Assembly (NCBI GenBank): GCA_964016885.1
Contig: OZ024744.1
Coordinates: 30,814,001 to 30,878,000, forward strand
DNA from: Eledone cirrhosa
Taxonomy: Eukaryota
Length of the DNA: 64,000 nucleotides
Direction of reading: 5' to 3'
Made by a program: the position numbers and the translations under genes. Shown here in pieces: positions 55,112 to 60,982 of the stretch. Under the pieces are notes generated by a model. It searched no databases. It was not told where the DNA came from and saw only the letters and a list, made by a program, of their open reading frames with translations. Position 1 is the first letter of the stretch. Each line of letters starts with the position of its first letter.

Positions 55112-55525
55112 CATCATCATCATCATCATCAACGTTTAACGTCCGTGTTCCACGCTTGCATGGGTTTGGACGGGGGTAGTCCCACTTGAGGCAAGAGTGA
55201 TTGTCTTGCTCGCATAGGACTGTCTGGCAGGTTTTCTACAGTTGGATGCCCTTCCTAACACCAACCACATTTACAGTGTGGGTCTGGGAGGTTTTTACCG
55301 TGTTGCCTACACGGCCACATTACAGCGTGGACTGTGTGTTTTTTTGTCGTGACACCTACACGATCTCATTTGTTTCGGCCTGGATGGCGCGGCACCAACA
55401 TAACTTTACATAGAACGGGGTGGTGTGGATGGGGTGGGGGTGGCGGCGGGAGGGGTGTATTTTGTTAGAGATGCCTACTGGCAAGGCGGGTCTTCTCTGT
55501 TACTGAGTACCGCCAAAGGTCACTC
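55112..55525 (-). mobile_element. 5'-truncated RTE-type non-LTR retroposon (last codons of ORF, 3' UTR, (GAT)n tail) inserted in the satellite, copy 1
   Basis: Minus strand reads SDLWRYSVTEKTRLASRHL*, resembling the C-terminal DxWR region of RTE ORFs, followed by a UTR ending GGACGTTAAACGTT(GAT)n. Flanked by TCTCAT at 55106-55111 and 55526-55531. The empty target GTCTTGTAGAATCTCATATATATT is present elsewhere, e.g. near 56140. Confidence 0.82.
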
Positions 55526-57245
55526 TCTCATATATATTAACATTTGTTGACACCCAGATTCCTGATGATTTCTAAAGAATGAAACACTTCTAGTCCTGTA
55601 GAACTCATCTATATTAAAATTTTTTGATACCCAGATTCCTGATGATTTCTAAAGAATGAACCAGTTCTAGTCCTGTAGAATCTCGTCTATATTAACATTT
55701 TTTGATACCCAGATTCCTGATGATTTCTAAAGAATGAACCAGTTCTAGTCCTGTAGAATCTCATCTATATTAACATTTTTTGATACCCAGATTCCTGATG
55801 ATTTCTAAAGAATGAAACAGTTCTAGTCCTGTAGAATCTCATCTATATTAACATTTTTTGATACCCATATTCCTGATGATTTCTAAAGAATGAACCAGTT
55901 CTAGTCCTGTAGAATCTCATCTATATTAACATTTTTTGATACCCAGATTCCTGATGATTTCTAAAGAATGAACCAGTTCTAGTCCTGTAGAATCTCATCT
56001 ATATTAACATTTTTTGATACCCAGATTCCTGATGATTTCTAAAGAATGAACCAGTTCTAGTCCTGTAGAATCTCATCTATATTAACATTTTTTGATACCC
56101 AGATTCCTGATGATTTCTAAAGAATGAAACAGTTCTAGTCTTGTAGAATCTCATATATATTAACATTTGTTGACACCCAGATTCCTGATGATTTCTAAAG
56201 AATGAAACAGTTCTAGTCCTGTAGAACTCATCTATATTAAAATTTTTTGATACCCAGATTCCTGATGATTTCTAAAGAATGAACCAGTTCTAGTCCTGTA
56301 GAATCTCATCTATATTAACACTTTTTGATACCCAGATTCCTGATGATTTCTAAAGAATGAAACAGTTCTAGTCCTGTAGAATCTCATCTATATTAACATT
56401 TTTTGATACCCATATTCCTGATGATTTCTAAAGAATGAACCAGTTCTAGTCCTGTAGAATCTCATCTATATTAACATTTTTTGATACCCAGATTCCTGAT
56501 GATTTCTAAAGAATGAACCAGTTCTAGTCCTGTAGAATCTCATCTATATTAACATTTTTTGATACCCAGATTCCTGATGATTTCTAAAGAATGAAACAGG
56601 TCTAGTCCTGTAGAATCTCATCTATATTAAAACATTTTGATACCCAGATTCCTGATGATTTCTAAAGAATGAAACAGTTCTAGTCCTGTAGAATCTCATC
56701 TATATTAAAATTTTTTGATACTCAGATTCCTGATGATTTCTAAATAATGAAACAGTTCTAGTCCTTTAGAATCTCATCCATATTAAAATTTTTTGATACC
56801 CAGATTCCTGATGATTTCTACAGAATGAAACAGTTCTAGTCATCTAGAATCTCAGCTATATTAACATTTTTTGATACCCAGATTCCTGATGATTTCTAAA
56901 TAATGAAACAGTTCTAGTCCTTTAGAATCTCATCCATATTAAAATTTTTTGATACCCAGATTCCTGATGATTTCTACAGAATGAAACAGTTCTAGTCATC
57001 TAGAATCTCAGCTATATTAACATTTTTTGACACCCAGATTCCTGATGATTTCTAAAGAATCAAACAGTTCTAGTCCTGTAGAATCTCATCTATATTAAAA
57101 AATTTTGATACCCAGATTCCTGATGATTTCTAAAGAATGAAACACCTCTAGTCCTGTAGAACCTCATCTATATTAACATTTTTTGATACCCAGATTTCTG
57201 ATGATTTCTAAAGAATGAAACAGTTCTAGTCTTGTAGAATCTCAT

Positions 57246-57659
57246 CATCATCATCATCATCATCAACGTTTAACGTCCGTGTTCCACGCTTGCATGGGTT
57301 TGGACGGGGGTAGTCCCACTTGAGGCAAGAGTGATTGTCTTGCTCGCATAGGACTGTCTGGCAGGTTTTCTACAGTTGGATGCCCTTCCTAACACCAACC
57401 ACATTTACAGTGTGGGTCTGGGAGGTTTTTACCGTGTTGCCTACACGGCCACATTACAGCGTGGACTGTGTGTTTTTTTGTCGTGACACCTACACGATCT
57501 CATTTGTTTCGGCCTGGATGGCGCGGCACCAACATAACTTTACATAGAACGGGGTGGTGTGGATGGGGTGGGGGTGGCGGCGGGAGGGGTGTATTTTGTT
57601 AGAGATGCCTACTGGCAAGGCGGGTCTTCTCTGTTACTGAGTACCGCCAAAGGTCACTC
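57246..57659 (-). mobile_element. Second, apparently identical copy of the RTE-type insertion
   Basis: Same sequence, tail length, truncation point and TCTCAT flanks (57240-57245, 57660-57665) as copy 1, at offset 2134. Confidence 0.82.
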
Positions 57660-59731
57660 TCTCATATATATTAACATTTGTTGACACCCAGATTCCTGAT
57701 GATTTCTAAAGAATGAAACACTTCTAGTCCTGTAGAACTCATCTATATTAAAATTTTTTGATACCCAGATTCCTGATGATTTCTAAAGAATGAACCAGTT
57801 CTAGTCCTGTAGAATCTCATCTATATTAACACTTTTTGATACCCAGATTCCTGATGATTTCTAAAGAATGAAACAGTTCTAGTCCTGTAGAATCTCATCT
57901 ATATTAACATTTTTTGATACCCATATTCCTGATGATTTCTAAAGAATGAACCAGTTCTAGTCCTGTAGAATCTCATCTATATTAACATTTTTTGATACCC
58001 AGATTCCTGATGATTTCTAAAGAATGAACCAGTTCTAGTCCTGTAGAATCTCATCTATATTAACATTTTTTGATACCCAGATTCCTGATGATTTCTAAAG
58101 AATGAAACAGGTCTAGTCCTGTAGAATCTCATCTATATTAAAACATTTTGATACTCAGATTCCTGATGATTTCTAAATAATGAAACAGTTCTAGTCCTTT
58201 AGAATCTCATCCATATTAACATTTTTTGATACCCAGATTCCTGATGATTTCTAAAGAATGAAACAGTTCTAGTCCTGAAGAATCTCATCTATATTAACAT
58301 TTTTTGATACCCAGATTCCTGATGATTTCTAAAGAATGAAACAGTTCTAGTCCTGTAGAATCTCATCTATATTAACATTTTTTGATACCCAGATTCCTGA
58401 TGATTTCTAATGAATGAAACAGTTCTAGTCCTGTAGAATCTCATCTATATTAACATTTTTTGATACCCAGATTCCTGATGATTTCTAAAGAATGAAACAG
58501 TTCTAGTCCTCTAGAATCTCATCTATATTAACATTTTCTGACACCCAGATTCCTGATGATTTCTAAAGAATGAAACAGTTCTAGTACTGTAGAACTCATC
58601 TATATTAAAATTTTCTAATACCCAGATTCCTAATGATTTCTAAAGAATGTAACAGTTCTAGTCCTGTAGAATCTCATCTATATTAACATTTTTTGATACC
58701 CATATTCCTGATGATTTCTAAAGAATGAAACAGTTCTAGTCCTGTAGAATCTAATCCATATTAAAATTTTTGGATACCCAGATTCCTGATGATTTCTAAA
58801 GAATGAAACAGTTCTAGTCCTGTAGAATCTAATCCATATTAAAATTTTTGGATACCCAGATTCCTGATGATTTCTAAAGAATGAAACAGTTCTAGTCCTC
58901 TAGAATCTCATCTATATTAACATTTTTTGACACCCATATTCCTGATGATTTCTAAAGAATGAAACAGTTCTAGTACTGTAGAACTCATCTATATTAAAAT
59001 TTTCTGATACCCAGATTCCTGATGATTTCTAAAGAATGAACCAGTTCTAGTCCTGTAGAATCTCATCTATATTAACACTTTTTGATACCCAGATTCCTGA
59101 TGATTTCTAAAGAATGAAACAGTTCTAGTCCTGTAGAATCTAATCCATATTAAAATTTTTGGATACCCAGATTCCTGATGATTTCTAAAGAATGAAACAG
59201 TTCTAGTCCTGTAGAATCTAATCCATATTAAAATTTTTGGATACCCAGATTCCTGATGATTTCTAAAGAATGAAACAGTTCTAGTCCTCTAGAATCTCAT
59301 CTATATTAACATTTTTTGATACGCAGATTCCTGATGATTTCTAAAGAATGAAACAGTTCTAGTCCTGTAGAATCTCATCCATATTAAAATTTTTTGATAC
59401 CCTGATTCCTGATGATTTCTAAAGAATGAAACAGTTCTAGTCCTGTAGAATCTCATCTATATTAAAATGTTTTGATACCCAGATTCCTGATGATTTCTAA
59501 AGAATGAAACAGTTCTAGTCCTGTAGAATCTCATCTATATTAACATTTTTTGACACCCAGATTCCTGATGATTTCTAAAGAATGAAACAGTCCTAGTCCT
59601 GTAGAATATCATATATATTAAAATTTTTTGATACCCAGTTTCCTGATGATTTCTAATGAATGAAACAGTTCTAGTCCTGTAGAATCTCATCTATATTAAA
59701 ATTTTTTGATACCCAGATTCCTGATGATTCC

Positions 59732-59785
59732 AGGTATACGTTGCTGACGATAGCTAACAAGCTTGAAACTAGTACAGCGTTCCTT
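59732..59785 (+). ncRNA. Minimal type I hammerhead ribozyme, copy 1; predicted cleavage after A59774
   Basis: ACGTTG 59738-59743 pairs with CAGCGT 59775-59780; CTGACGA 59744-59750; stem II T-AGC-TAACAA-GCT-T; GAAA 59765-59768; minimal palindromic stem III ACTAGT; GTA triplet. Confidence 0.85.
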
Positions 59786-60134
59786 TGTCAGTGTTGAACA
59801 AACGAGCAACGGTGGTTGCTAGACACTACGGCTTAATACGGGATGTTTGTTTACAAACACACCGAGCATTATAATAAATGTTCGGTGAATCCATACGTGC
59901 ATATATATATGTGTGCATGTATGTATATATATATATACATACTACTGTACGTCGGTATACATATATGTATGTACGTGTACATACTTATATTTAAGTAACA
60001 GCCGTACTAAGAGTGGGAAATGAAATATCGTTTCATTTTTTCCGTTTATCGTTTTCGGTGCACCCGGCCGATTAACCCACTCGATATGCATATTGGGCTA
60101 CTCAGCCGTTAATATGCATAAGGTAAGTATATAC

Positions 60135-60221
60135 GTTCAACAATCTGGCAGGAAGGTATACGTTGCTGACGATAGCTAACAAGCTTGAAACTAGTACAGC
60201 GTTCCTTTGTCAGTGTTGAAC
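60135..60221 (+). ncRNA. Minimal type I hammerhead ribozyme, copy 2, with extended stem I; predicted cleavage after A60196
   Basis: Same core as copy 1. Stem I is extended by AAGG/CCTT, CTGGCA/TGTCAG and GTTCAACA/TGTTGAAC. Confidence 0.87.
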
Positions 60222-60556
60222 AAACGAGCAACGGTGGTTGCTAGACACTACGGCTTAATACGGGATGTTTGTTTACAAACACACCGAGCATTATAATAAA
60301 TGTTCGGTGAATCCATACGTGCATATATATATGTGTGCATGTATGTATATATATATATACATACTACTGTACGTCGGTATACATATATGTATGTACGTGT
60401 ACATACTTATATTTAAGTAACAGCCGTACTAAGAGTGGGAAATGAAATATCGTTTCATTTTTTCCGTTTATCGTTTTCCGTGCACCCGGCCGATTAACCC
60501 ACTCGATATGCATATTGGGCTACTCAGCCGTTAATATGCATAAGGTAAGTATATAC

Positions 60557-60643
60557 GTTCAACAATCTGGCAGGAAGGTATACGTTGCTGACGATAGCTA
60601 ACAAGCTTGAAACTAGTACAGCGTTCCTTTGTCAGTGTTGAAC
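60557..60643 (+). ncRNA. Minimal type I hammerhead ribozyme, copy 3; predicted cleavage after A60618
   Basis: Identical to copy 2 at offset 422. Confidence 0.87.
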
Positions 60644-60887
60644 AAACGAGCAACGGTGGTTGCTAGACACTACGGCTTAATACGGGATGTTTGTTTACAA
60701 ACACACCGAGCATTATAATAAATGTTCGGTGAATCCATACGTGCATATATATATGTGTGCATGTATGTATATATATATATACATACTACTGTACGTCGGT
60801 ATACATATATGTATGTACGTGTACATACTTATATTTAAGTAACAGCCGTACTAAGAGTGGGAAATGAAATATCGTTTCATTTTTTCC

Positions 60888-60890
<3 letters not shown>

Positions 60891-60918
<28 letters not shown>

Positions 60919-60932
60919 CGTATATATATAAG

Positions 60933-60982
<50 letters not shown>

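Follow-up and report, generated by a model that had tools for sequence, protein, structure and literature searches.

The join of two hammerhead repeat families in Eledone cirrhosa is probably a scar of elements stacking into common (TA)n tracts

We analysed 64,000 nucleotides of DNA from Eledone cirrhosa (the window; contig OZ024744.1, positions 30,814,001 to 30,878,000), in which two tandem repeats meet, each unit of both carrying a type I hammerhead core on the + strand. A 78-bp satellite fills the window from base 1 through 59729 (+ strand) and is the right-hand part of a single 377-kb array (G000:C28:30,496,736-30,873,729). Its last ribozyme is truncated (59715-59729, + strand): the 5' strand of helix I (59715-59720) and the core CTGATGA (59721-59727) are followed by the two bases TT, about 50 bases short of the point at which the short arm of the satellite's parent element ends. 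An insert of two bases, CC (59730-59731), separates base 59729 from a 422-bp repeat array (59732-60893, + strand), which begins six bases 5' of its own helix I strand, runs for 2.75 copies and ends in a (TA)n tract (60891-60982), the target site for both families. An earlier note on this DNA had placed the end of the satellite inside its core and the start of the 422-bp array two bases later; these coordinates were confirmed in the assembly, and the join in the assembled sequence is a real feature, as the note described. The join region comprises 387 kb without an N, both flanks of the whole locus are TA, and no clear microhomology was found between the two sides of the join. A genome-wide pattern search for a satellite-type core, a gap of 0-30 nt and a 422 core returned one match, the window join itself; thus, core-to-core fusion is not a recurring association of these families.

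The hammerhead motifs of both repeats contain the core CUGANGA, GAAA and the UH triplet in type I order. The first 422 motif lies at 59738-59780 on the + strand (core 59744-59750, GAAAC 59765-59769, GTA 59772-59774), without the distal helix I extension that is present in the second copy (60160-60202, + strand); the third motif lies at 60582-60624. Inspection showed in both ribozymes the common features that the earlier note had listed: the sequence GAAAC, a GUA triplet, a palindromic CTAG and a helix II with a U.U pair at its base. It should be noted that these features are generic for animal type I hammerheads: a palindromic helix III loop is typical of animal hammerheads (PMC4209133), and a U.U mismatch at the base of helix II has been described in axolotl (PMC7229834). 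Local alignment of the satellite with the 422-bp unit scored 18, compared to a mean of 18.5 and a maximum of 29 in 300 base-shuffled controls, and by this measure the two are unrelated in sequence. The predicted lowest-energy fold of the 422 motif has helices I and II in the hammerhead layout, the predicted fold of the satellite monomer has helix I only, and z-scores across the motif folds ranged from -0.1 to -1.4. No Rfam hammerhead model reached its gathering score in the window, and none was found up to E=10 in 59400-60300; Rfam miRNA matches were rejected as TA/TG-repeat noise. At the join, the satellite helix I strand and the strand 3' of the 422 cleavage triplet cannot pair with each other, and the predicted fold leaves the former unpaired, so that no chimeric ribozyme is predicted to form there. 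The satellite core is barely more conserved than the rest of the unit (0.977 versus 0.968 for other positions).

The satellite array contains no N and, by its length, about 4,800 units; an indel-intolerant scan called 4,288, of which 3,270 have an intact core. The units match the majority unit at about 97%, and the ribozyme occupies 52 of the 78 bases (two thirds). Nine SINE-like inserts lie within the array. One of them (420 bp, 55113-55533) is duplicated at 57247-57667; therefore, the array had aged and recombined before its end was hit. Co-copying of such inserts with higher-order duplications of the satellite was seen at these two window positions and at C28:30,769,133-30,780,981. Compared with the remainder of the array, the final 600 bases of the satellite match nothing above 95.7%, and the terminal stretch is therefore not a fresh copy of another array part.

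The origin of the satellite can be traced to a dispersed parent element, the end repeat of which (pLTR-like) includes the 78-bp unit and then a tail of 68 nt; this tail has 6,628 exact matches genome-wide in a pattern search. The parent family has the PLE-type layout, with a (TA)n target and an inverted arm at 17 of 30 loci, as called by a strict 14-mer test. The satellite unit scores 140 in local alignment with the parent end repeat, compared to 18 with the 422-bp unit. The idea that the satellite descended from a related element thus holds for a Penelope-type ancestor, which is the satellite's own parent family and not the 422-bp family. At the left end of the array, (TA)n is followed by the long arm of the parent in inverted orientation, to which five parent copies are nearly identical. 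The earlier note had proposed to look for the 422-bp unit at other ends of the satellite; none was found at this left end and none inside the 377-kb array. A 10-base word at the inversion joint recurs at the short-arm end one unit on and is a plausible seed of the 78-bp period. The satellite is best read as the likely overgrown short arm of one parent insertion. Neither the parent nor the 422-bp family has an ORF, and a six-frame comparison of both units with 14 PLE ORFs revealed no coding remnant at E<=0.5.

For the 422-bp family, 204 candidates were found and 39 were scored; many full units are 100% identical across many contigs, and the window copies are likewise 100% identical to copies on many contigs, by which the window insertion is judged to be very young. 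The tail of the unit directly before TA has 3,607 exact matches genome-wide, older subfamilies included. Two inverted head-to-head arms are present at 27 of the 34 other loci, and at 24 of these both fixed outer ends (unit positions ~259 and 318) are visible in (TA)n; six of the other loci are one-armed, and one, which fills the fetched stretch, is unclassifiable. The family is non-coding (its frames are full of stops) and dispersed, with at least two tandem units each containing a type I motif, as in retrozymes. Its inverted 5'-truncated arm, one-sided tail (~59 nt) and (TA)n target correspond to PLE-type insertions, the window copy being one-armed: it consists only of the arm that stops at the fixed long-tail end (position 318), its partner arm with the ~259 end is absent, and the satellite occupies the place of the second arm and its TA.

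At ordinary inner joints of 422 arms there are 0-11 inserted bases, a range that includes the CC of the window, or an overlap of 1-10 bases. The inner ends are evenly spread over the unit (59 ends at 31 loci, KS p=0.98; the set leaves out the window, L040, L051, L052 and small internal fragments). Four inner ends, one of them at position 2, lie within 15 nt of the window's start, compared to 4.2 expected; therefore, the start of the array beside a ribozyme is not special, and a preferred start at the ribozyme was rejected. The even inner ends, together with arms of up to 16 copies, would fit a circular or multimeric template. One arm (L041:1725) begins at unit position 42, adjoining the predicted cleavage site, without an overall enrichment of such ends.

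The two families meet repeatedly at TA tracts. Satellite-like sequence adjoins 5 of the 34 other 422 loci, in three cases as the dispersed parent element and in two as a different 310-bp hammerhead family. The latter (L037:108-1066 and L061:3481-5398) is a tandem family that is two-armed in (TA)n, and its core resembles that of the satellite parent. An intact 422 insertion next to the parent would be expected to consist, after the parent and its TA, of an inverted 259 arm and a forward arm that reaches 318, with TA again at the end. The first part of this layout, from the parent short arm through TA to the inverted 259 arm, has three exact pattern matches, complete at L237 and L239 and a stub at L238; the mirror layout (parent, TA, 318 arm) is found at L054 and L236. 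Nesting in the TA tails of other PLEs is routine. The earlier note considered chance adjacency unlikely. This stands in one respect: chance alone does not account for the adjacency, given that (TA)n is the target of both families and that they nest in each other's TA tails. The core-to-core register, however, carries no meaning, as the join is unique and the inner ends are uniform.

We therefore give a probability of about 0.62 to the join being a one-off boundary of two non-coding hammerhead families that insert into (TA)n, where a young 422-bp element landed in the terminal TA of the older satellite and the spacer was lost. The parent is laid out as two inverted arms in a TA tract, where a Penelope-type RT/endonuclease would have placed them; its long arm with the 68-nt tail persists at the left end of the array. 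At the inversion joint, which lies one unit upstream of the point where the short arm ends, the 10-base direct repeat may have seeded a 78-bp duplication, which unequal exchange would have expanded to 377 kb. Much later, the TA tract at the close of the array may have served a 422-bp element as a priming site. The second arm of this element would then have failed, the free end being joined after resection into the satellite, or it would have been deleted afterwards. Compared with the intact layout, the window lacks the 259 arm, the TA to its left and ~50 bases at the end of the satellite, with CC as the presumed remnant scar. A break inside a ribozyme is likely because the ribozyme makes up two thirds of each satellite unit. 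Joins of a 422 arm to another family without TA were found at 4 of 64 loci (L040, L164, L178, L181); thus, such fusions are a regular by-product. The join is therefore probably an insertion scar, ordinary debris from elements stacking into common TA tracts, and not a working fusion.

Several observations weigh against nested insertion followed by loss. The spacer loss is a reconstruction: a search for a second haplotype or a second full-length copy of the right flank found neither, nor any empty or pre-deletion allele. Post hoc, the chance of a break so close to both cores is a few percent, and the window join is same-strand in the hammerhead sense. A further same-strand fusion without TA, at C1:350.20 Mb, is explained by template switching and not by deletion. 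Finally, PLE ORFs are abundant (10,596 GIY-YIG candidates, 150 scored; RT domains in four of five ORFs), but no autonomous RT + GIY-YIG partner with a matching end repeat could be tied to either family near 49 GIY-YIG loci, and the two PLE copies inspected near the families are nested behind TA.

The C1:350.20 Mb locus is the only satellite copy outside the array as judged by the unit-to-unit junction pattern, which has 1,481+1 matches genome-wide, 1,478+1 of them within the array and the other three at this locus. The three-part insertion lies between TA tracts (L241:1355-2670, G000:C1:350.199-350.202 Mb; also L294) and is ordered as follows: after a first (TA)n come 950 bp of the inverted end of family Y, then 7.5 units of the satellite, then the arm of a 485-bp hammerhead family (1.5 copies of a unit with a long helix II), and (TA)n again. 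No TA separates the satellite from the inner end of the 485-bp family arm, the two being on the same strand, and the satellite joint has a 7-nt microhomology and a short slippage duplication. Family Y bears ORFs and appears PLE-like, based on its two-armed layout and a single BLASTP hit to a PLE ORF, which covers the RT core (E=2e-6); three of its frames had no Pfam match, and one pairwise test was not significant. As read from this arrangement, satellite sequence has been copied at least once into a PLE-type insertion, from RNA or DNA.

This capture makes template switching feasible at the window as well. Here, a PLE RT would have switched to satellite RNA (or DNA) of the adjacent array once 2.75 copies of the 422 RNA had been completed; the cDNA end would then have annealed to the array and removed the TA between. 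The placement of satellite units between the arms of two other PLE-type families at C1, with the microhomology and slippage duplication described above, speaks for such a route, as does L040, a same-strand switch between related families. However, the terminal satellite is no recent copy of other array parts, which would leave a transcript of the terminal stretch as the only fitting template, and satellite transcription is putative. In addition, the window join has no clear microhomology, and the C1 units match their best source in the array at 96.4%, indicating an older, separate event. We consider this route unlikely for the window, although it deserves to be taken seriously. It is a tentative proposition that one Penelope-type enzyme can assemble an insertion from several RNAs, with a different family on each arm and satellite transcripts spliced in by template switching, as at C1 and, by the same route, at the window join. 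If this were true, satellite DNA that originated from the end repeat of a PLE would rejoin the retrotransposition cycle. At L164, L178 and L181, no TA lies between a 422 arm and the fixed end of another TA-targeting family; in these insertions, each arm may come from a different RNA. At L040:3828-4630, the sequence passes from a 422 arm, without a change of strand, to a related ~465-bp hammerhead family at a homologous position.

The other readings of the join are improbable to differing degrees. A collapsed or chimeric assembly that skips real sequence between the satellite and the 422-bp array would be favored by the repeats on both sides and by the uniqueness of a join assessed from the assembly alone. 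Yet the absence of N over 387 kb, the lack of an overlap between the two sides on which an assembler could join them, the 2-base insert, the locally unique terminal units and the TA bounding the locus on both sides, as biology predicts, make such an artefact quite unlikely. Insertion of both repeats together, or their origin from one RNA or ancestor, agrees with their common strand and hammerhead class; we regard it as very improbable, since their similarity is at the null level, the satellite has its own parent and left arm, and no 422-bp unit occurs in the array or at its left end. The ages differ as well: the 422 copies, identical across contigs, are far younger than the satellite with its diverged units and SINE-like inserts, which excludes joint insertion. 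Even less credible is a fusion selected as a hybrid ribozyme or for a processed satellite-retrozyme RNA: both motifs are on one strand and some three quarters of satellite cores are intact, but the join occurs once, the hybrid helix I cannot pair in the predicted fold, and the core shows hardly any excess conservation. Nested insertion with loss of the spacer remains the preferred reading.

Both families resemble the animal non-LTR retrozymes, non-coding tandem units with a type I hammerhead each that have been proposed to be non-autonomous derivatives of pLTRs from PLEs (Cervera and de la Pena 2020, PMC7229834); a unit length of a few hundred bases is a further common point. The bioRxiv preprint by Li, Clavereau and Pollet (2026, 10.64898/2026.07.22.740005) proposed local amplification from one terminal repeat, with arrays of up to 300 units, and reported that 8 of 9 predicted retrozymes failed to cleave. 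In contrast to the systems described there, the parent, inverted arm and seed repeat can be read here at the end of an array some 16 times as long, and circRNA and cleavage of the present elements are putative. The layout of an inverted truncated copy, one-sided tail and microsatellite targets is the insertion signature of PLEs (Craig et al. 2021, PMC8557442), and in vitro two RT start sites with extension of both cut strands explain it (Frangieh et al. 2024, PMC11167929). With the endonuclease-bearing PLEs of these two reports, our families have in common partial tandems, the inverted 5'-truncated copy, the one-sided tail and AT-rich or (TA)n targets; they differ in the lack of an ORF, in tails of ~59 and 68 nt versus 30-40, in the one-armed window copy and in some insertions with arms of different families. 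Hammerhead satellites are known in newt, schistosome and cave cricket (PMC7229834), and minimal hammerheads in PLE pLTRs (PMC4209133). These likewise have a type I hammerhead per unit, with a palindromic helix III that suits dimer activity; unlike those satellites, the unit here is only 78 bp, two thirds ribozyme, and is limited to one array and one captured orphan. A literature search on octopus hammerheads, Penelope template-switch chimeras and mollusc Penelope-derived satellites, which covered few subscription journals, found no description of this locus or of such chimeras.

So read, the locus is a clear record of the birth of a satellite from one PLE-type insertion, in which the parent, inverted arm and seed repeat survive at one end, and this record agrees with an amplification route that has been proposed for satellites of retrozymes. 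The chimeric insertions are relevant to how PLE enzymes draw on one or two RNAs per cut site, a matter that one in vitro study has only begun to resolve. Around the 78-bp array, another two-armed inverted element lies in the TA tract immediately left of the array start (L123:5140-5550), and a different, purine-rich satellite is found on both sides of the array in opposite orientations (L105-L109, C28:30.35-30.47 Mb; L120, 30.888 Mb).
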